Of a stretch of 64,000 nucleotides of DNA, positions 6,755-18,303 are shown piece after piece (position 1 is the stretch's first letter; each line of letters opens with the position of its first letter). The stretch is from Escherichia coli (lineage in GTDB: Bacteria; Pseudomonadota; Gammaproteobacteria; Enterobacterales; Enterobacteriaceae), in the NCBI RefSeq assembly GCF_024298765.1, contig NZ_CP101211.1; one strand, written 5' to 3'. The notes beneath the pieces were generated by a model, which saw only the letters and a list, made by a program, of their open reading frames with translations, searched no databases and was not told where the DNA came from. A program made the position numbers and the translations under genes.

Positions 6755-6825
6755 CTAACTTTGTTTTAGGGCGACTGCCCTGCTGCGTAACATCGTTGCT
6801 GCTCCATAACATCAAACATCGACCC
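6755..6825 (-). other. attI1 recombination site of a class 1 integron, apparently with no cassette
   Basis: 5'-conserved segment ...GTCGCCCTAAAACAAAGTTAGAT followed on the cassette strand by what I recall as the start of the qacE cassette, cut by IS26 at 6686; boundaries approximate. Confidence 0.6.
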
Positions 6826-6894
6826 ACGGCGTAACGCGCTTGCTGCTTGGATGCCCGAGGCATAGACTGTACAAAAAAACAGTCATAACAAGCC

Positions 6895-7576
6895 ATGAAA
6901 ACCGCCACTGCGCCGTTACCACCGCTGCGTTCGGTCAAGGTTCTGGACCAGTTGCGTGAGCGCATACGCTACTTGCATTACAGTTTACGAACCGAACAGG
7001 CTTATGTCCACTGGGTTCGTGCCTTCATCCGTTTCCACGGTGTGCGTCACCCGGCAACCTTGGGCAGCAGCGAAGTCGAGGCATTTCTGTCCTGGCTGGC
7101 GAACGAGCGCAAGGTTTCGGTCTCCACGCATCGTCAGGCATTGGCGGCCTTGCTGTTCTTCTACGGCAAGGTGCTGTGCACGGATCTGCCCTGGCTTCAG
7201 GAGATCGGAAGACCTCGGCCGTCGCGGCGCTTGCCGGTGGTGCTGACCCCGGATGAAGTGGTTCGCATCCTCGGTTTTCTGGAAGGCGAGCATCGTTTGT
7301 TCGCCCAGCTTCTGTATGGAACGGGCATGCGGATCAGTGAGGGTTTGCAACTGCGGGTCAAGGATCTGGATTTCGATCACGGCACGATCATCGTGCGGGA
7401 GGGCAAGGGCTCCAAGGATCGGGCCTTGATGTTACCCGAGAGCTTGGCACCCAGCCTGCGCGAGCAGCTGTCGCGTGCACGGGCATGGTGGCTGAAGGAC
7501 CAGGCCGAGGGCCGCAGCGGCGTTGCGCTTCCCGACGCCCTTGAGCGGAAGTATCCGCGCGCCGGGCATTCCTGGC
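6895..7576 (+). pseudogene. intI1: Class 1 integrase gene truncated at its 3' end by IS26 (about 227 codons kept)
   Basis: Translation [44 protein letters not shown]... matches IntI1; reading frame runs into the IS26 repeat at 7577. Confidence 0.9.
6982..7010 (-). promoter_or_regulatory. Integron cassette promoter Pc, hybrid variant (-35 TGGACA, -10 TAAACT, 17-bp spacer)
   Basis: On the cassette strand: TGGACAtaagcctgttcggttcgTAAACT inside intI1. Confidence 0.7.
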
Positions 7577-8396
7577 GGCACTGTTGCAAATAGTCGGTGG
7601 TGATAAACTTATCATCCCCTTTTGCTGATGGAGCTGCACATGAACCCATTCAAAGGCCGGCATTTTCAGCGTGACATCATTCTGTGGGCCGTACGCTGGT
7701 ACTGCAAATACGGCATCAGTTACCGTGAGCTGCAGGAGATGCTGGCTGAACGCGGAGTGAATGTCGATCACTCCACGATTTACCGCTGGGTTCAGCGTTA
7801 TGCGCCTGAAATGGAAAAACGGCTGCGCTGGTACTGGCGTAACCCTTCCGATCTTTGCCCGTGGCACATGGATGAAACCTACGTGAAGGTCAATGGCCGC
7901 TGGGCGTATCTGTACCGGGCCGTCGACAGCCGGGGCCGCACTGTCGATTTTTATCTCTCCTCCCGTCGTAACAGCAAAGCTGCATACCGGTTTCTGGGTA
8001 AAATCCTCAACAACGTGAAGAAGTGGCAGATCCCGCGATTCATCAACACGGATAAAGCGCCCGCCTATGGTCGCGCGCTTGCTCTGCTCAAACGCGAAGG
8101 CCGGTGCCCGTCTGACGTTGAACACCGACAGATTAAGTACCGGAACAACGTGATTGAATGCGATCATGGCAAACTGAAACGGATAATCGGCGCCACGCTG
8201 GGATTTAAATCCATGAAGACGGCTTACGCCACCATCAAAGGTATTGAGGTGATGCGTGCACTACGCAAAGGCCAGGCCTCAGCATTTTATTATGGTGATC
8301 CCCTGGGCGAAATGCGCCTGGTAAGCAGAGTTTTTGAAATGTAAGGCCTTTGAATAAGACAAAAGGCTGCCTCATCGCTAACTTTGCAACAGTGCC
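7577..8396 (+). mobile_element. IS26 (820 bp, complete)
   Basis: 14-bp terminal repeats at 7577 and 8383-8396. Confidence 0.95.
7622..8344 (+). CDS. tnpA: IS26 transposase
   Basis: Identical translation to the other IS26 tnpA copies. Confidence 0.95.
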   Translation: MLMELHMNPFKGRHFQRDIILWAVRWYCKYGISYRELQEMLAERGVNVDHSTIYRWVQRYAPEMEKRLRWYWRNPSDLCPWHMDETYVKVNGRWAYLYRAVDSRGRTVDFYLSSRRNSKAAYRFLGKILNNVKKWQIPRFINTDKAPAYGRALALLKREGRCPSDVEHRQIKYRNNVIECDHGKLKRIIGATLGFKSMKTAYATIKGIEVMRALRKGQASAFYYGDPLGEMRLVSRVFEM

Positions 8397-8994
8397 CAAT
8401 TTTGATACCTGATGTATCGACTTTGCGGGGATCTAAACCGTCGAGTTCGGCGTGGCATAAATTGGCACCCTGTAGGCTAAATTGCCCCCAGACATCTTCG
8501 GAAAAAACACCTCGACTTAAGTCTGACTCTTTCAGTGATGCACCCGCTAGGTTCGTTCCTATCCAGCGATTTTCAAACAACTCACATTTTTCTAAACAAA
8601 CCCTCTCCATATTGGCATAGGAAAGATTACATCCAGAAATAAATGCTGAGCAAAAGTACATACGATTACTCACTTGATGGGCAAAGTTTGTTCGGGAAAA
8701 GTTGGCACCTTTTAAATCACACGCACGGAACTCTATACCGTAGCAATTGGCATTACTGAAGTTTGCCATCGCAAGTTGGCATTGTTGGAAACTTGCATCA
8801 CGAAGATCTGCGACATCAAAGTGGCAGCCTTCGATATCACCCTGTTCAATGAACTTGCAGTTGACGAATGTCGTATCACGCAAGTTAGCACGTCGAAAGT
8901 CGCTGCGAATGAATGTGCAAGCGGTGAAGGTGAGATCACTTAAGTCTTTATGTGAAAAGTTGTGGTGCCGATATGTATGATTGTAGGTTTCCAT
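8397..8994 (-). pseudogene. qnrS1: qnrS1 5' fragment (first about 199 codons), interrupted
   Basis: METYNHTYRHHNFSHKDLSDLTFTACTFIRSDF... pentapeptide-repeat protein matching QnrS1; the supplied ORF tail is read-through into the IS26 repeat. Confidence 0.9.
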
Positions 8995-9361
8995 GAGTAC
9001 TCCTTGTTGAAAGGAGGGCTAGACTACCATTATACATATGCCAAGACATTAAAATAAAAGCCTGTTACATCAACACATTACAACCCCTCAATTTACCTGT
9101 TTTAAGTGGTCAAATTGGCGCGTAGAGCGCCTATCGCTCTTGCATTGGCACGCGGCCCTGTTGAAAAAAGTTATTCGCTTTAGATAGGGTTAGGAGAGCC
9201 GTGCTTCGCCGGTAAAAAATCGGACTATCCGACGCAGGGCGGACTCATCGGCGGAGAAGCAAACTTTGACTATATCTCCCTACACTTGGAAGAGGGCTAG
9301 ACTGGCCCCATAGATCACCAGACACTTCGACTCTCTTAAAATAAGAGGTAGTCTTGGAACT

Positions 9362-9553
9362 ATGTTTAATACCAGTCAGAACGATAAGATGGTTGAAGTG
9401 TTATCAGGACCTGAGCGGCGTCGGCGTCGTACACCGCAGGAAAAAATTGCCATTATTCAGCAGACTATGGAGCCCGGTATGACCGTGTCTCATGTCGCGC
9501 GCCTGCATGGCATCAATGCAAACCAGATATTCAAATGGCGCAAGCAATATTAA
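9362..9553 (+). pseudogene. IS2-like orfA with an in-frame TAA stop after codon 63
   Basis: ...QIFKWRKQY* then, in the same frame, [21 protein letters not shown]..., which matches the continuation of IS2 OrfA. Confidence 0.6.
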
Positions 9554-9870
9554 GACGGTTCACTGACGGCTGTTGCATCGGGCGAGGAAGTGGTGCCGGC
9601 CTCCGAACTCGCTGCCGCCAATAAGCAAATTCGCGAACTCCAGCGCCTTCTGGGCAAAAAGACGATGGAAGCCGAGATACTCAAAGAGGCCGTGGAGTTC
9701 GGCCGGGCAAAAAAATGGATTGCGCATGCGCCCTCGTTGCCTGGGAACGACGAATAAGCGACGTTTGCAGAAGTCTTGGCGTGTCGCGTGCGCAGTTGAG
9801 CATTCGGGTTCACCGGCCATCTGACTGACAGGATCGCAGACGGCAGCCCCGTTCTGACGATACCACCGTA

Positions 9871-10413
9871 TTGTCCCGGATAAACATGGCGGTGGCTGAC
9901 CTGCCGACGTATGGTTATCGCCGTGTGTGGGCGCTGCTGCGACGGGAGTCGGAGCGGGACGGCCTGCCTGTGGTTAATGCAAAGCGGGTGTATCGCATTA
10001 TGAGAACGCATAATCTGCTTCTTGAACGTAAACCCGCTGATCCTTGCCGTAAGCGGGCCCATAAGGGGCGCGTAGCAGTAGCGGAAAGTAACCGGCGCTG
10101 GTGCTCAGATGGCTTTGAGTTCCGCTGTGATAATGGCGAAAAGCTGCGGGTGACCTTCGCGCAGGACTGCTGCGACAGGGAGATCATTGACTGGGCAGCG
10201 AGCACCGGAGGCTATGACAAAGAAACGGTGCAGGATGTCATGCTGGGTGCGGTGGAAAAACGCTTCGGAAGGCAGTTGCCAACAGTGCCGGCGTTCGCCC
10301 GGTTGCTGGGACTGGAGCCTTGTACGACAGCAGTGCGAAGCCCGGAAAGCAATGGCATAGCAGAAAGCTTCGTGATGACGATAAAACGGGACTACATCAG
10401 CATCAGGATTTTA
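9871..10413 (+). pseudogene. IS2-like orfB (integrase core), C-terminally truncated
   Basis: ...[23 protein letters not shown] then the Tn3-family repeat; the true orfB start lies upstream in the -1 frame. Confidence 0.7.
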
Positions 10414-10451
10414 GGGGTCTGACGCTCAGTGGAACGAAAACTCACGTTAAG
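10414..10451 (-). repeat. 38-bp terminal inverted repeat of Tn2/Tn3 (tnpA end)
   Basis: GGGGTCTGACGCTCAGTGGAACGAAAACTCACGTTAAG; the tnpA stop lies inside it. Confidence 0.9.
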
Positions 10452-13371
10452 CAACGTTTTCTGCCTCTGACGCCTCTTTTAATGGTCTCAGATGTCCTTT
10501 GGTCACCAGTTCTGCCAGCGTGAAGGAATAATGGCCGAGCATATTGATATGTCCGTGGCAAAGCGGGGAGAGGCGTGCGATATCTTCATCATTCAGTGTT
10601 TCACCCTGCGCCCGGAGATGATCCAGGGCTGCCTGCATATAAATAGTGTTCCATAACACGACGGCGTTAGTGACCAGCCCCAGTGTGCCCAGTTGATCTT
10701 CCTGACCGTCGGTATATCGTTTTCTTATCTCACCTTTTTGACCGTGACAGATGGCTCTGGCAACGGCATGGCGACTTTCTCCCCGATTAAGCTGGGTCAG
10801 AATGCGCCGGCGGTAATCTTCATCATCAATATAATTAAGCAGATACAGCGTTTTGTTGATGCGCCCCACTTCAATGATTGCCTGAGTCAGTCCGGAAGGA
10901 CGTTCACTTTTCAGCAATGAACGGACCAGCACTGAAACCTGTACTTTGCCCAGCTTCAGGGAGCCAGCGGTCCGGATCATTTCGTCCCACTGAAGGACTA
11001 TTTTTCGGGGATCTGATTGCCCTCTGGCAATATCATTCAGCACGCCATAGTCGGCATCATGGTCCATTCGCCAGAAAACCGAAGCACCGGCATCAGCCAG
11101 GCGTGGAGAAAACTGGTATCCCAGCAGCCAGAAAAGGCCAAAGACAAGTTCGCTGGCACCTGCTGTATCGGTCATAATTTCGGTTGGATTCAGCCCGGTC
11201 TCCTGTTCCAGAAGACCTTCCAGCACAAAGATAGAGTCCCTCAGCGTCCCCGGTATAACGATGCCATGAAAGCCGGAATACTGATCGGACACAAAGTTGT
11301 ACCAGGTGATCCCTCTGTTATTACCAAAGTATTTGCGGTTCGGTCCGGCATTGATTGTTCTGACTGGCGTAACAAAGCGCATTCCATCTGCAGATGCCAC
11401 TTCTCCTCCACCCCATATCTGTGCCAGTGGCAGCGTTGCCTGAAAATCAACCAGTCTGGCATTAGCGCTGGTGATAGTTTCAGCCCGCAGATAGTTCGCT
11501 TTTGTCCAGTTCAGCCGGTGTCGGGTCAGTGCAGGAACATTTGATCTGATCAGTGGTTCCAGACCGATATTGCAGGCTTCAGCCATCAGCACGGCGCTGA
11601 TGCTGACGGGCAGATCATCAACTCTGGCACTGGCTTCACTAGCATGGAAAAACTCATCAGCAAATCCGGTATGGGCGTTAATTTCGAGCAGCAACTCCGT
11701 TAAATCCACCGGAGGGAGTAGATCACTGATCATTTTGCTCAGTCGTTTCAGACTGTCCGGCTCATCAAGACTGGCGAGGGGAGAAATTGTCAACCGGGGC
11801 TTCGGGCCAGAAACATCGAGTTCGACAGCCTCATTTTCGCAAAGACGTGCAGCAACCTGTCTGTAACGACTATCAAGCTGATGACCCAGAGATTTTATTG
11901 CTTCCTGCGGGTCTGTCGGGTGCCCCAAAGAACGATAAACCTTAATCCGGTTTGCCTGCCAGTCAGCACCCTGTAGTAATCTTGCACGAGGATCTCCCCA
12001 CCGGTTACTGCCGGTAACGTAGACATCCCTCCGCCTCAGACTATCCTGCAGTTTACTGAGAAAGCAGAGCGTGTATCCCCTGCGGGTGATATGTTTTTCC
12101 TTGTTAATCACCAGCCGTTTCCATGACCGACTGATAATTTCCGTTGGTGCGTCGTCAAAAAACTGCCGCCGTGAGCTGAACTCCCGGCTGAGGTAGTCAC
12201 AGGCATTCAGAGTGGTAACCCCGGCAGGTGCGGATGAAAATTTAACGGTATTCAGCAGATGGGGCAGGAAACGACGAACGCGCCCGTACTGCTCCACCAT
12301 TTCTTCATGAAAATTATCGTCTGAGGGCCGGGCAATTTCACGGACAAGCGTGATGATTTCAGCCAGCTTTTGCCTTGGGATGTAGCTGAACACCTCAGCA
12401 CGAATCGATTCGTCCGGTGTTTCTTCTTTCAGCAGGTACGAACATGCGCTGGCGAGCGCCAATGCAGATTTATCCAGATCCTTCAGCGAGCGGAGCCGTT
12501 TTTTCTGCCCAATCTTTCTGGCGTCACGGATGATAACGGCCAGCATGGCGTCCAGAACGTCCAATGCATCATCCAGCGCCAGCGTTTCCCATGCAAGGAC
12601 AAAGGCAACCAGAACCGCCATCCTTTTCTGCGGTGACATCCTGGCAATATTGAACACCGAAGTCATACCAGCATAACGTGCGAGATTTTTCAGGCGCACA
12701 GCCGGGAGTGTACTCAGGTTTTCAGCATGCAGGCCAAAATCGTTCAGAGTTTTCCAGCGTTCAATTGCTTCATTAAACGCCGGACCACTGATGGTCACAG
12801 GGCCCTTTTTCAGTGATTCCAGTAAAGACAGGCGGCTGCAATCAGTTGGCCCCAGCAGCATCTCCAGCTGTGAACGCTGTTCGGCTGACGGTATCAGTGC
12901 CAGTTTGTTCCACAGGCGCAACGTCGCCTTTTCCCTTACCTCTGAAATCAACCGGGTCAGCGTAGTGGCTCCGGGGAGAATAATACGATGTTGCATAAGC
13001 CACCCTGTCGCCAGATCGAAAAGCAGGCCAGGACGTTCGTTGCTTATCCAGCTCCGGGTATATAAAAGACGGGTAAGGCGAAATGTCCAGGGCCAGGCAA
13101 ATTCACGATACTGATAGTGCTGACGTATCAGCGCTGCATGCTCACGGCGGGTATTTTCCCTCTGACCGTATTCTGCAAGAACGGTGATATCACGAATCCC
13201 GAGCTGTCTGGCGGTAAAATGCCGGACGCCGGAAGGAATATGATTCATATCGGTGAGGAAGGTGCCCAGAAAACGGACACATCCAATTTGCAGGGCAATG
13301 CCCAGACGGTTGTGATCACCTCTGCTTTTTCCGATAAATTCCTTGTCTGCTTCATCAAGGTGAAAATATCG
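10447..13371 (-). pseudogene. tnpA: Tn2/Tn3-family transposase lacking about 27 N-terminal codons (IS6100 insertion)
   Basis: Native sequence begins RYFHLDEADKEFIGKSRGDHNRLGIALQ...; the first 25 codons of the supplied ORF are IS6100 sequence. Confidence 0.85.
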
Positions 13372-14251
13372 GGCTCTGTTGCAAAAATCGTGAAGCTTGA
13401 GCATGCTTGGCGGAGATTGGACGGACGGAACGATGACGGATTTCAAGTGGCGCCATTTCCAGGGTGATGTGATCCTGTGGGCGGTGCGCTGGTATTGTCG
13501 CTATCCGATCAGCTATCGCGACCTTGAGGAAATGCTGGCGGAACGCGGCATTTCGGTCGACCATACGACGATCTATCGCTGGGTCCAGTGCTACGCCCCG
13601 GAGATGGAGAAGCGGCTGCGCTGGTTCTGGCGGCGTGGCTTTGATCCGAGCTGGCGCCTGGATGAAACCTACGTCAAGGTGCGGGGCAAGTGGACCTACC
13701 TGTACCGGGCAGTCGACAAGCGGGGCGACACGATCGATTTCTACCTGTCGCCGACCCGCAGCGCCAAGGCAGCGAAGCGGTTCCTGGGCAAGGCCCTGCG
13801 AGGCCTGAAGCACTGGGAAAAGCCTGCCACGCTCAATACCGACAAAGCGCCGAGCTATGGTGCAGCGATCACCGAATTGAAGCGCGAAGGAAAGCTGGAC
13901 CGGGAGACGGCCCACCGGCAGGTGAAGTATCTCAATAACGTGATCGAGGCCGATCACGGAAAGCTCAAGATACTGATCAAGCCGGTGCGCGGTTTCAAAT
14001 CGATCCCCACGGCCTATGCCACGATCAAGGGATTCGAAGTCATGCGAGCCCTGCGCAAAGGACAGGCTCGCCCCTGGTGCCTGCAGCCCGGCATCAGGGG
14101 CGAGGTGCGCCTTGTGGAGAGAGCTTTTGGCATTGGGCCCTCGGCGCTGACGGAGGCCATGGGCATGCTCAACCACCATTTCGCAGCAGCCGCCTGATCG
14201 GCGCAGAGCGACAGCCTACCTCTGACTGCCGCCAATCTTTGCAACAGAGCC
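13372..14251 (+). mobile_element. IS6100 (880 bp, complete)
   Basis: Terminal repeats GGCTCTGTTGCAAA at 13372 and at 14238-14251. Confidence 0.9.
13397..14197 (+). CDS. tnpA: IS6100 transposase (true start may be the Met at 13433)
   Basis: ...[39 protein letters not shown]..., an IS6-family transposase. Confidence 0.9.
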   Translation: MSMLGGDWTDGTMTDFKWRHFQGDVILWAVRWYCRYPISYRDLEEMLAERGISVDHTTIYRWVQCYAPEMEKRLRWFWRRGFDPSWRLDETYVKVRGKWTYLYRAVDKRGDTIDFYLSPTRSAKAAKRFLGKALRGLKHWEKPATLNTDKAPSYGAAITELKREGKLDRETAHRQVKYLNNVIEADHGKLKILIKPVRGFKSIPTAYATIKGFEVMRALRKGQARPWCLQPGIRGEVRLVERAFGIGPSALTEAMGMLNHHFAAAA

Positions 14252-14689
14252 CGCCGTGCTAGTCTGCTCGGTGATGGTGGAGTGAAGCCAACCCGCAATC
14301 GGGTTATGAATCTGCATCGCGATTCGCAATCAGCTGTCTCTTGAGCATGTCGAACTCCTGCGATGTTATCTCGCCGTGCTCGTGCTGCTACACCAACTTG
14401 TCCAACTCATCCGCCACACCGCTCCCCACCACCTGCGATGGCCAGGTTGTTTGCTGGGCGCATTGGCGGAGTATCGTCTCGACCCGGGACACCCACACCG
14501 GCACAACCTTACGGGAGTGATTCACTGTCAAAGAATCGGCCCGGTGCTCTGACGCAAGTATCGGGATGGTCACCATTTGTAAGCCGTAGACCTGAGTGGT
14601 GATCAAGACTTCGATACCACCGACCGTACCGGTACTAATCGACGACGGTCGTGTTCGTCGCCTGCCGCAGGGACTCTGCACACCTCCGT

Positions 14690-15274
14690 TTACGCATGTG
14701 CCTGGAGGAGTTGGAAATCGTCGTGTTCGGGAAACATTAAACACAGGATGGCAGCGATCTGAGCCAGCACATGATCAGCTAGCTCACCATCCGGATCGAC
14801 GGCCCACTGCATCGTCGCGCCAGCGATGACCGAGTGCAGGAGCAACTCAGCTGCCGCAGGAGCACCTGGGGGCAGTCGCTTGCGGATCCCCTCCACCACC
14901 GCGCGGTTCCGCTGGATCGCAAGCGTGCGTAGCTCCGGCACCTGGAGCTCGTACCAGGAGATGAGATAGTTCACCGAGAAGTCGTTGCGAGTGTTCATGC
15001 TCCGAACGAGCACCTGCAAAAATTCCCAGAGCCCTTGCGGCCCTGCGCCTATCGGTATCGCATTCAGGTAATGCCGCACCTGCTCGACGCCGCGCTCCAT
15101 CATCCTCACCAGCAGCGTATCGCGGTTGGTGAAGCGCTGGATTAACGCTGCGCGGGAGAGCCCCACCTCCTTTGCTACTCCGCTGAGCGTGAACTCTATG
15201 GGACCGCAACGCTTCAGCACTACGGTGGCGGCCTCGAGTACCTCGTCATCGGACTTGAGCTTGGGGCGGGGCAT
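14690..15274 (-). CDS. mphR(A): TetR-family repressor MphR(A)
   Basis: Identical to the 75-659 copy. Confidence 0.9.
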   Translation of the reverse strand: MPRPKLKSDDEVLEAATVVLKRCGPIEFTLSGVAKEVGLSRAALIQRFTNRDTLLVRMMERGVEQVRHYLNAIPIGAGPQGLWEFLQVLVRSMNTRNDFSVNYLISWYELQVPELRTLAIQRNRAVVEGIRKRLPPGAPAAAELLLHSVIAGATMQWAVDPDGELADHVLAQIAAILCLMFPEHDDFQLLQAHA

Positions 15275-16512
15275 CAGTGTTCACCTTCTGTATGGGTTGG
15301 GGCGGAGGCTGTGGCTGCCGCCGCCATTGTAGCAAATTGAAGACGGAGCGAGAGTAGAGCCACGAGCCCCGCAAACACGGCCGATACAACGAGGCCAGGG
15401 AGCGGACCAGCAAGGTCGACAAACGCGCCGGCCGCAAGCATAACCATGGGCGAGGCTGACAGCATCACCGCCGAGACCGTGCCGAGTACCCGGCCGAGAA
15501 GTTCTGGCGGCGTGCGGTTGTAGATGGCAGCGTTGAGAATGGGAGAGACTGAGCCGGTCAGCAGTCCCACGAGCGCGCCCAACAACATCAGCACCGGCAC
15601 GCCTGGCAACTGTGAAAGCAGAAGCGAGCCCACCGCAGAGCCACAAAATGCCACCGCCAGCCAGTTCTGCGCTGATATCCGGGCGCCGACCGACGCATGA
15701 ATGGCAATGCCAAGGAGACCACCAGCCCCCATCATTGAGGAGAACAGCCCGAGCTCTGCTACTTGGCGTCCTGCATCTACAAACAGCGCAGGCATGATGA
15801 CGCTGCCGTTGGCGCCAACGATGCCCACGAAGATCATCACTATACCAAAGAGAGGGCGCAGCAGGGGTTCGCTCCAGAGAAAAGCGACGCCGGCGCGCAT
15901 GGAGAGAGTCGCCGTCGTGGTCATCGTCCGAGCGGCACGCGCGGGAAGCACCCACGCGCCGAGCAGACCTGCAAGGACGGAGCAGAACGCCGTCAGCCCG
16001 AGCGTTGGCGCAGCGCCAAGCAGGCCGATTGCGGCCCCCCCAAGGGCCGGGCCACCTAGAATCGCGACGTTCCCGATCACCGCTTTCAGTGACGAGACGC
16101 GCTCAACGGAGAGCCCGGCGACGTGGCCGAGTTTGGGCAGCTCACTGTCCTGCGCGGCCATACCGGGTGCGTCGAACGCGGCACCGAGCACCACGCAAGC
16201 GATCAGCCCAGTGTTCGAGAGGGCGCCAACGGCATCGAGCAGTGGGATGCTCGCCATGGCCACGCCGCCCACCACACCCGAGATCAATGCGACGGGCGCG
16301 CGCCCGAACCGATCGACGAGGCCACCACCAACCCACGCGCCGATGATGGTCGCGATGACGCTGCTAGCGGCCGTGGCGCCCGCCCAGGCCGCGCTCTTTG
16401 TATGAGACAGGACGAACCATGGAAGCGCGAGGGCCGCCACCGCGTTGCCGATCCGGAAGAGAAAGGTCGCCGCGAACAGCGTCGCGAGCGGGCTATATCG
16501 ACGTTCGCTCAT
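15274..16512 (-). CDS. mrx: Mrx, MFS-type membrane protein of the mph(A) operon
   Basis: 412-aa hydrophobic ORF between mph(A) and mphR(A) with overlapping stop and start codons. Confidence 0.85.
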   Translation of the reverse strand: MSERRYSPLATLFAATFLFRIGNAVAALALPWFVLSHTKSAAWAGATAASSVIATIIGAWVGGGLVDRFGRAPVALISGVVGGVAMASIPLLDAVGALSNTGLIACVVLGAAFDAPGMAAQDSELPKLGHVAGLSVERVSSLKAVIGNVAILGGPALGGAAIGLLGAAPTLGLTAFCSVLAGLLGAWVLPARAARTMTTTATLSMRAGVAFLWSEPLLRPLFGIVMIFVGIVGANGSVIMPALFVDAGRQVAELGLFSSMMGAGGLLGIAIHASVGARISAQNWLAVAFCGSAVGSLLLSQLPGVPVLMLLGALVGLLTGSVSPILNAAIYNRTPPELLGRVLGTVSAVMLSASPMVMLAAGAFVDLAGPLPGLVVSAVFAGLVALLSLRLQFATMAAAATASAPTHTEGEH

Positions 16513-17446: not shown

Positions 17447-17480
17447 ACCTAAATGTAACAGTCACGTCGGTTATATTCAA
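17447..17480 (-). promoter_or_regulatory. mph(A) promoter and MphR(A) operator region (pseudo-palindrome)
   Basis: AATATAACCGACGTGACTGTTACATT pseudo-palindrome directly upstream of mph(A); limits approximate. Confidence 0.45.
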
Positions 17481-17483
17481 TCC

Positions 17484-18303
17484 GGCACTGTTGCAAAGTT
17501 AGCGATGAGGCAGCCTTTTGTCTTATTCAAAGGCCTTACATTTCAAAAACTCTGCTTACCAGGCGCATTTCGCCCAGGGGATCACCATAATAAAATGCTG
17601 AGGCCTGGCCTTTGCGTAGTGCACGCATCACCTCAATACCTTTGATGGTGGCGTAAGCCGTCTTCATGGATTTAAATCCCAGCGTGGCGCCGATTATCCG
17701 TTTCAGTTTGCCATGATCGCATTCAATCACGTTGTTCCGGTACTTAATCTGTCGGTGTTCAACGTCAGACGGGCACCGGCCTTCGCGTTTGAGCAGAGCA
17801 AGCGCGCGACCATAGGCGGGCGCTTTATCCGTGTTGATGAATCGCGGGATCTGCCACTTCTTCACGTTGTTGAGGATTTTACCCAGAAACCGGTATGCAG
17901 CTTTGCTGTTACGACGGGAGGAGAGATAAAAATCGACAGTGCGGCCCCGGCTGTCGACGGCCCGGTACAGATACGCCCAGCGGCCATTGACCTTCACGTA
18001 GGTTTCATCCATGTGCCACGGGCAAAGATCGGAAGGGTTACGCCAGTACCAGCGCAGCCGTTTTTCCATTTCAGGCGCATAACGCTGAACCCAGCGGTAA
18101 ATCGTGGAGTGATCGACATTCACTCCGCGTTCAGCCAGCATCTCCTGCAGCTCACGGTAACTGATGCCGTATTTGCAGTACCAGCGTACGGCCCACAGAA
18201 TGATGTCACGCTGAAAATGCCGGCCTTTGAATGGGTTCATGTGCAGCTCCATCAGCAAAAGGGGATGATAAGTTTATCACCACCGACTATTTGCAACAGT
18301 GCC
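17484..18303 (-). mobile_element. IS26 (820 bp, complete)
   Basis: 14-bp terminal repeats at both ends. Confidence 0.95.
17536..18258 (-). CDS. tnpA: IS26 transposase
   Basis: Identical translation to the other IS26 tnpA copies. Confidence 0.95.
   Translation of the reverse strand: MLMELHMNPFKGRHFQRDIILWAVRWYCKYGISYRELQEMLAERGVNVDHSTIYRWVQRYAPEMEKRLRWYWRNPSDLCPWHMDETYVKVNGRWAYLYRAVDSRGRTVDFYLSSRRNSKAAYRFLGKILNNVKKWQIPRFINTDKAPAYGRALALLKREGRCPSDVEHRQIKYRNNVIECDHGKLKRIIGATLGFKSMKTAYATIKGIEVMRALRKGQASAFYYGDPLGEMRLVSRVFEM

Follow-up and report, generated by a model that had tools for sequence, protein, structure and literature searches.

The main finding of this work concerns positions 9298–13446 of a 64,000-nt stretch of the Escherichia coli contig NZ_CP101211.1 (hereafter the window, to whose positions all coordinates refer), where a truncated IS2-like insertion sequence (IS), ISEcl2, a truncated transposase gene (tnpA) of a Tn2/Tn3 transposon and IS6100 adjoin one another. 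This region is a junction in a plasmid-type multiresistance mosaic, which reads ΔqnrS1, ΔISEcl2, eight orphan bases, the tnpA-end terminal inverted repeat of the transposon (IRL) with ΔtnpA, IS6100 and the macrolide module mphR(A)-mrx-mph(A). As judged by sequence comparison, IS6100 would bound the tnpA remnant through a deletion or cointegrate-type event and not through a simple insertion. We propose that the region results from the decay of ISEcl2, the formation of a junction with Tn2, the loss of the 5' end of tnpA and a deletion adjacent to IS6100 in a progenitor resembling the plasmid pEQ2, an account to which, taken as a whole, we assign a probability of about 0.6.

As the sequence comparisons show, ISEcl2 was first inactivated by three lesions, namely GAA>TAA in orfA, TGG>TGA in orfB and the deletion of 51 bp with the second catalytic Asp. 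Its right 174 bp were then replaced by a segment starting 8 bp outside the IRL of Tn2, and the junction formed in this way spread widely while Tn2 was still complete. The 5' end of tnpA was lost later, together with res, tnpR, blaTEM and the right inverted repeat (IRR). In the last step, we infer that IS6100 generated an adjacent deletion by intramolecular replicative transposition into the 8-bp target AAATATCG of a pEQ2-like progenitor, in which IS26 already truncated tnpA at a point 27 bp further upstream; this deletion would have taken away 1,335 bp, made up of the 27 bp of tnpA, the IS26 and a padR remnant of 488 bp. Element-adjacent deletion through intramolecular replicative transposition is a known behaviour of the IS26 family. 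If the route through pEQ2 is right, IS26 had inactivated tnpA by the time that IS6100 gave the remnant its present end.

The IS6100 junction and its relation to pEQ2

Plasmid searches were performed in PLSDB (72,556 plasmids), and the retained parts of tnpA and qnrS1 were compared base by base with the intact copies of pVQS1. The region 9298–13446 was covered to at least 80% in 419 plasmid records, and hundreds of plasmids carry the block at 100% identity, which excludes chance. The true junction between tnpA and IS6100 lies at 13371/13372; position 13446, which the original prediction had taken as the boundary, is really the TTG start, 75 bp inside IS6100, of a chimeric open reading frame (ORF) spanning 10447–13446. 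IS6100 presents the 14-bp terminal repeats GGCTCTGTTGCAAA at both ends and encodes a 254-aa transposase matching the IS6-family model NF033587 (E = 2e-85) and PF13610 (E = 8e-50). An identical copy was named IS6100 by the Prokaryotic Genome Annotation Pipeline (PGAP), and both the size of the element and the 254 aa agree with the published description (PMC7986276). The 8-bp flanks of IS6100 are unlike (AAATATCG vs. CGCCGTGC), so that there is no target duplication, as one would expect if a cointegrate or a deletion had formed the junction. The reciprocal junction, in which the right end of IS6100 would be followed by AAATATCG and the 5' part of tnpA, had no real match in PLSDB, where only two-piece artefacts were obtained, and the far side of IS6100 carries the mphR(A)-mrx-mph(A) module and not the remainder of Tn2. 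Among the PLSDB records, 9 contain the IS6100/tnpA junction itself, and these derive from E. coli and Klebsiella aerogenes. Thus, the claim that tnpA lacks its first 27 codons because of IS6100 stands in so far as exactly 81 nt are missing and the remnant abuts IS6100, whereas the simple insertion that it implied is not supported.

The plasmid pEQ2 (NC_023277.2) shows no mismatch to the window on either side of the junction, over 4,975 bp on the left and 4,088 bp on the right, and it carries, at the left end of IS6100, an extra 1,335 bp made up of 27 tnpA bases, IS26 and the 488-bp padR remnant. To derive this plasmid from the window type, 27 bp of tnpA would have to be regained; the window type, on the other hand, is derivable from a pEQ2-like form in a single deletion beside the left end of IS6100. 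A precise excision of IS26 from a pEQ2-like plasmid was also considered and rejected, given that the IS26 of pEQ2 lies 27 bp further into tnpA, at another nucleotide. Nevertheless, several observations weigh against a deletion in a pEQ2-like progenitor as the last step of the history proposed here. The pEQ2-type intermediate arrangement is found in a sole PLSDB record. The junction of mph(A) with its upstream IS26 (window 17459–17484) lies 24 bp further from the gene than in pEQ2 (L012, 21498), and pEQ2 is therefore a cousin and not the direct parent. The blocks shared by the window and pEQ2 are all 100% identical and provide no single-nucleotide polymorphisms with which to root the direction of change. 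In addition, the deletion model does not predict an endpoint on a nucleotide that IS26 also uses, a coincidence that has to be left to target preference or luck, and the account as a whole explains neither where the eight orphan bases came from nor, in consequence, how ISEcl2 was truncated.

It is conceivable, though in our opinion unlikely, that IS6100 hit an intact tnpA of Tn2 directly when a qnrS1-Tn2 plasmid and an IS6100-mph(A) molecule formed a cointegrate by the copy-in route, with one of the junctions later lost and with pEQ2 arising independently; the expected counterpart form would then be a cointegrate in which IS6100 is directly followed by AAATATCGTGCCAGC. Members of the IS6 family are known to move by cointegrate formation, and flanking duplications are often absent after rearrangement (PMC7986276). 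The target AAATATCG is also usable by this family, since IS26 insertions located there have 8-bp duplications. However, this explanation needs two independent events, each of which would have brought this macrolide module, in identical orientation, to points of the same qnrS1-linked Tn2 not more than 27 bp apart, and the reciprocal IS6100 junction that it calls for was not found in PLSDB.

The nucleotide at which tnpA ends in the window (13371, directly following AAATATCG; window 13364–13372) is also an IS26 boundary in many plasmids, in both orientations. The left end of IS26 occupies the equivalent position beside ISEcp1-blaCTX-M-15 in IncF plasmids, in a CTX-M-27 plasmid and, as a simple insertion, in pPK8275-145kb, and the right end does so in pFUJ80154-2 and CP020060; both orientations have partners with the 8-bp duplication of AAATATCG. 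In a spread sample of the matches, about ten distinct breakpoints were counted in the surrounding 501 bp, and therefore an exact coincidence has a chance of approximately 2% per event. Little target specificity is generally ascribed to IS26. The shared breakpoint would thus suggest a target preference, although falling short of proof. Whether this nucleotide is a preferred target of the IS6/IS26 family, or whether members of the family replace one another at an existing junction, we can put forward only as a tentative idea that is less probable than its contrary. An open-text literature search for AAATATCG as an IS26 target returned only Acinetobacter genomics papers that were unrelated, as judged by title or abstract.

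The second of these options, a swap of elements at a fixed junction, would require that IS26 cut tnpA first, as in pFUJ80154-2, and that a precise loss of IS26 with its adjacent DNA subsequently left IS6100 in its place, either by slippage between the near-identical, directly repeated 14-bp terminal repeats or by a transposase acting on both ends. In favour of such a swap, which we nevertheless consider quite improbable, many plasmids, among them qnrS-linked ones, have IS26 at precisely this nucleotide, and the terminal repeats of the two elements agree at 13 of 14 positions. No PLSDB record was found in which IS26 at AAATATCG precedes the padR remnant and IS6100, the sole intermediate found, pEQ2, has its IS26 27 bp away, and the window carries the IS6100-type T at position 4 of the repeat, which confines any crossover to the first 3 bp. 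As for the targeted conservative route, it requires identical transposases as well as identical DNA at the reacting end (Harmer & Hall 2021, PMC7885326), and a replacement of IS26 by IS6100 in this manner is accordingly disfavoured on experimental grounds.

Decay of ISEcl2 and its junction with Tn2

The IS2-family element begins at 9298 with TAGACTGGCCCC, where its left terminal repeat is present, and shares approximately 70% DNA identity with IS2. When the frames were repaired, OrfA matched the NCBIfam model of IS2 TnpA with an E-value of 5e-64 and 214 bits, under the curated cut-off of 229, and OrfB matched that of IS2 TnpB with an E-value of 2e-101 and 340 bits (profile positions 1–247 of 301), under the curated cut-off of 597. 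The name ISEcl2 used here rests on the published position of the element directly upstream of qnrS1, where the remnant is known as ΔISEcl2 (PMC5034289, PMC2600179) and where ΔISEcl2-qnrS1-ΔtnpR-ISKpn19 constitutes a widespread platform (PMC5034289). The remnant is present in at least 1,573 plasmid records at 99% identity or more.

An in-frame TAA had been predicted at codon 64 of orfA, and it was borne out: the triplet occupies 9551–9553, which corresponds to codon 64 counted from the ATG at 9362 and to codon 55 counted from the Met of the homologues. Since OrfA of IS2 does not share this stop, having CAG at this position, and the closest intact relative, from Salmonella, has GAA, the TAA is, on this comparison, a real nonsense mutation. 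Two further lesions that the original prediction had missed were identified in orfB, namely a second nonsense codon (TGA, 9826–9828, TGG>TGA relative to the relatives) and a 51-bp deletion, seen as 51 gap columns against the IS2 and Salmonella copies. The stretch so removed holds ...WLTDNGS..., which we take, from established knowledge of the IS3 family, to contain the second Asp of the DDE triad. Because of this deletion, the Pfam rve match on OrfB is limited to profile positions 3–66 of 102, and the C-terminal 45 residues of OrfB have gone together with the right end of ISEcl2. The A7 run between both genes acts as a −1 frameshift site in IS2 and the IS3 family. The element in the window is consequently left with neither a complete DDE triad nor open frames nor a second terminal repeat (of the TAGA...TCCA type).

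A copy of ISEcl2 retaining both ends, 1282 bp in length and with the terminus ...CTGGATATATAGGGTCAAATCCA, lies beside blaLAP-2 in NZ_CP101767; the window element is identical to it as far as 10405 and diverges beyond. The TAA, the TGA and the 51-bp deletion are all present in this 1282-bp copy and all absent from the intact Salmonella relative. Therefore, ISEcl2 was dead before it lost its right end, and the TAA is, by its distribution among these sequences, ancestral to the whole plasmid lineage and not private to the window. The flanks of the 1282-bp copy (AGGGC vs. CTGTA) show no 5-bp target duplication. Intact fusion transposases of 401 aa, up to approximately 91% identical to that of ISEcl2 (P0001), were recovered in the protein search, and the element of the intact relative (L015, 1501–2732; L016; L017) occupies differing sites of Salmonella chromosomes with 5-bp duplications (AAATG, GTTTG). 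For this reason, the Salmonella relative appears to be an active IS. One of its copies splits proQ.

Homology to ISEcl2 ends at 10405, and the following eight bases, 10406–10413 (GGATTTTA), belong neither to ISEcl2 nor to the transposon. In consequence, the claim that orfB stops at the transposon terminal repeat is partly right, as its frame does end at a TGA (10420–10422) inside the 38-bp Tn3-family repeat, whereas the homology of the IS is exhausted earlier. Two boundaries had to be corrected on alignment, this one (10405, with eight bases before 10414) and the one at 13371/13372. The junction with its eight orphan bases is identical in plasmids with a complete tnpA-tnpR-blaTEM-1, such as pK91, pVQS1 and a Shigella plasmid. 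Because plasmids with intact tnpA share it, the ISEcl2/Tn junction is older than the loss of the 5' end of tnpA, and the predicted order of the two junctions is supported in this sense, by comparison with other plasmids and not from the window alone, whereas the description of both as simple insertions does not hold.

In the complete copies of the transposon, the left 5-mer TTTTA faces AATAA on the right (pVQS1, an IS26 tail), without 5-bp duplication; in the Shigella plasmid, the right 5-mer is TAAAA, upstream of an ISCR2-like gene, against the same TTTTA on the left. No PLSDB record reaching 80% coverage has the transposon IRR adjoining the missing right part of ISEcl2. An exact scan for GGATTTTA plus the inverted repeat gave no match in 100,044 species genomes (GTDB), and the 8-mer is present neither in the full-length ISEcl2 nor in its LAP-2 or ColE-plasmid flanks. 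IS26 was considered as a source of GGATTTTA, since it contains the 8-mer (a 9-mer with the preceding A), and was rejected because strand and position are wrong for a simple story; a match of this kind inside IS26 has a chance of approximately 2–3% and may be fortuitous. An insertion of the transposon into ISEcl2 is thus not shown, and the expression that the IS was cut by the transposon end is only approximately right. Two simple nested insertions, of Tn2/Tn3 into the IS2-like element and later of IS6100 into tnpA, are in fact highly improbable, for although the reported adjacencies exist and plasmids with intact tnpA speak for the proposed order of the two junctions, eight bases foreign to ISEcl2 separate the IS from the inverted repeat, complete transposon copies have no 5-bp duplication, no PLSDB record places IRR beside the right part of ISEcl2, IS6100 has neither an 8-bp duplication nor, in PLSDB, a reciprocal junction, and the DNA past IS6100 is an unrelated macrolide module.

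The Tn2 remnant

The ΔtnpA (10447–13371, minus strand) showed no mismatch to the intact tnpA of pVQS1 over 2,925 nt and matched the Tn3-family transposase model NF033527 (1151 bits) and PF01526 (E = 3e-148). It lacks exactly the first 81 nt, that is, 27 codons (MPVDFLTTEQTESYGRFTGEPDELQLA), and retains its stop codon at 10447–10449; residues 1–27, the start codon and the promoter are all gone. The 38-bp repeat at 10414–10451 is the single exact copy in the 64-kb window, in which no second one was found. The res site, tnpR, blaTEM and IRR, present in related plasmids, are here replaced by IS6100 and the macrolide module. For the chimeric ORF of 999 codons, no consensus promoter was found; the junction has no promoter-like site, and such sites are as numerous as expected by chance. 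The features of the remnants, as far as can be read from them, would thus give no indication of a current function. As the original prediction held, both elements are fixed in place, since neither the ISEcl2 nor the Tn2 remnant can move alone; the ΔqnrS1, ΔISEcl2 and ΔTn2 pieces are immobile by themselves and travel passively with the surrounding IS26- and IS6100-bounded segments.

The remnant is annotated as tnpA_Tn2 in the record OZ026763, and the label given by PGAP in the records of relatives is the generic "Tn3-like element Tn3 family transposase". In linked complete copies of the transposon, T occupies coding positions 18, 228 and 396 of bla, which we take to be the pattern of blaTEM-1b (Tn2). 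Because the window lacks the res/tnpR region by which the subtypes are told apart, the assignment to Tn2 over Tn3 or Tn1, made from the relatives, is only likely.

Map of the region and comparison with known systems

The coordinates of the features described here are collected in Table 1.

Table 1. Features of the resistance-region junction, in positions of the 64,000-nt window.
Feature	Position	Strand	Remarks
IS26	7577–8396	+	820 bp; 14-bp repeats GGCACTGTTGCAAA at 7577 and 8383–8396; Tnp26 ORF 7622–8344
qnrS1, 3'-truncated by IS26	8397–8994	−	598 of 657 nt, 199 of 218 codons; no mismatch vs. pVQS1 qnrS1
ΔISEcl2 (IS3 family, IS2 group)	9298–10405	+	left 1108 bp of the 1282-bp element; right inverted repeat gone
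orfA (HTH_Tnp_1)	9362–9757	+	PF01527, E = 3e-20; nonsense TAA at 9551–9553
A7 slippery run, −1 frameshift site from orfA to orfB	9709–9715	+	GCAAAAAAATGG, also conserved in IS2 and in the intact Salmonella element
Second nonsense codon, TGA in the orfB frame	9826–9828	+	TGG (Trp) in IS2 and in P0001–P0003
51-bp in-frame deletion scar in orfB	10285–10286	+	loses ...LEWLTDNGSAYRAHETR...; 17-residue gap vs. P0001
Eight orphan bases, GGATTTTA	10406–10413		separate ISEcl2 from the repeat of the transposon
38-bp terminal inverted repeat (tnpA end, IRL), Tn2/Tn3	10414–10451	+	exact pattern match; identical in complete copies
ΔtnpA of Tn2	10447–13371	−	codons 28–1001 and stop codon
IS6100	13372–14251	+	880 bp; repeats 13372–13385 and 14238–14251; transposase gene 13433–14197
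mphR(A) and mrx(A), with which the macrolide module begins	14690–16512	−	ORFs; identical block annotated in pEQ2 and pB6CTX

The window shares with the ΔISEcl2-qnrS1 platform (pAH0376/pINF5-type, with a "Tn3-like" transposon) the same IS2-like remnant, the qnrS1 spacer and the junction with the TEM transposon (PMC5034289, PMC2600179), and its parts of the platform are 100% identical to pK91, pVQS1, pEQ2 and many others. Unlike the platform, its qnrS1 is cut by IS26, ISKpn19 is gone and the transposon is reduced to IRL and tnpA codons 28–1001. With IS2 and the ISEcl2-like element of Salmonella, the copy has in common the left terminal repeat, the orfA/orfB arrangement with the A7 frameshift site and the helix-turn-helix (HTH) and rve domains; it differs from them by the two nonsense codons, the 51-bp deletion and the absence of both a right end and a target duplication, and it is a pseudogene, not an IS. 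Compared with Tn2, the blaTEM-1b transposon of the Tn3 family that is often annotated as Tn3, the 38-bp IRL and the 2,925 nt of tnpA are identical to complete copies, whereas IRR, res, tnpR, bla and tnpA codons 1–27 are lacking.

On the other side of the junction, IS6100 and the macrolide module, which agree with pEQ2 at every base over 4,088 bp, correspond to the IS6100-mphR(A)-mrx-mph(A)-IS26 module, which usually reads padR/chrA-IS6100-mphR(A); in contrast to the usual arrangement, the outer flank of IS6100 is here the ΔtnpA of Tn2 and not the padR remnant. The same tnpA nucleotide and the same 8-bp target AAATATCG are found in IS26::Tn2 insertions (pPK8275-145kb and the ΔTn2-IS26 boundary beside ISEcp1-blaCTX-M-15 in IncF plasmids), where IS26 occurs either way round with an 8-bp duplication, while the window has IS6100 and one junction only.

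The mosaic is therefore ordinary and already known, as the exact IS6100 junction is in public records, at least one of which annotates it, and the qnrS1-ΔISEcl2-ΔTn2 and IS6100-mph(A) modules are standard parts of enterobacterial resistance plasmids, with little value as a discovery. The results are of use for annotation, in that they give boundaries exact to the base and show the IS2-like element as a triple-hit pseudogene and not as a recent casualty. In addition, the IS6100 junction constitutes a lineage marker common to 9 PLSDB plasmids and linked to pEQ2, and the breakpoint shared by IS26 and IS6100 may interest students of target choice in the IS26 family, if a systematic count confirms it.

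At a larger scale, neither the first 24 kb of the window, searched in PLSDB, nor positions 6800–14400, searched among complete E. coli genomes, had a single continuous match, and only modules were recovered. The qnrS1 gene loses its last 59 nt to IS26, with the boundary at 8396/8397, and the truncated copy in the window is probably non-functional as a quinolone-resistance gene. An exact 12-bp direct repeat, GAGGGCTAGACT, occurs twice, 278 bp apart (9014–9062 vs. 9292–9347), as does TTAAAATAA[A/G]AG, and the stretch that directly precedes the qnrS1 start resembles a degenerate duplicate of the flank together with the left end of ISEcl2. A second fragment of IS6100, in inverted orientation, was observed at 1098–1418 (noted within 1098–1432), cut at 1419 by another IS26. 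It has the same mphR(A)-side flank, as the reverse complement, and fragment and flank together would point to an inverted duplication inside the resistance region. The 5' part of intI1, the class 1 integrase gene, assigned by eye from the ORF translation, lies within 6895–7593 and stops at the left end of IS26 (7577), which constitutes another truncation by this element.

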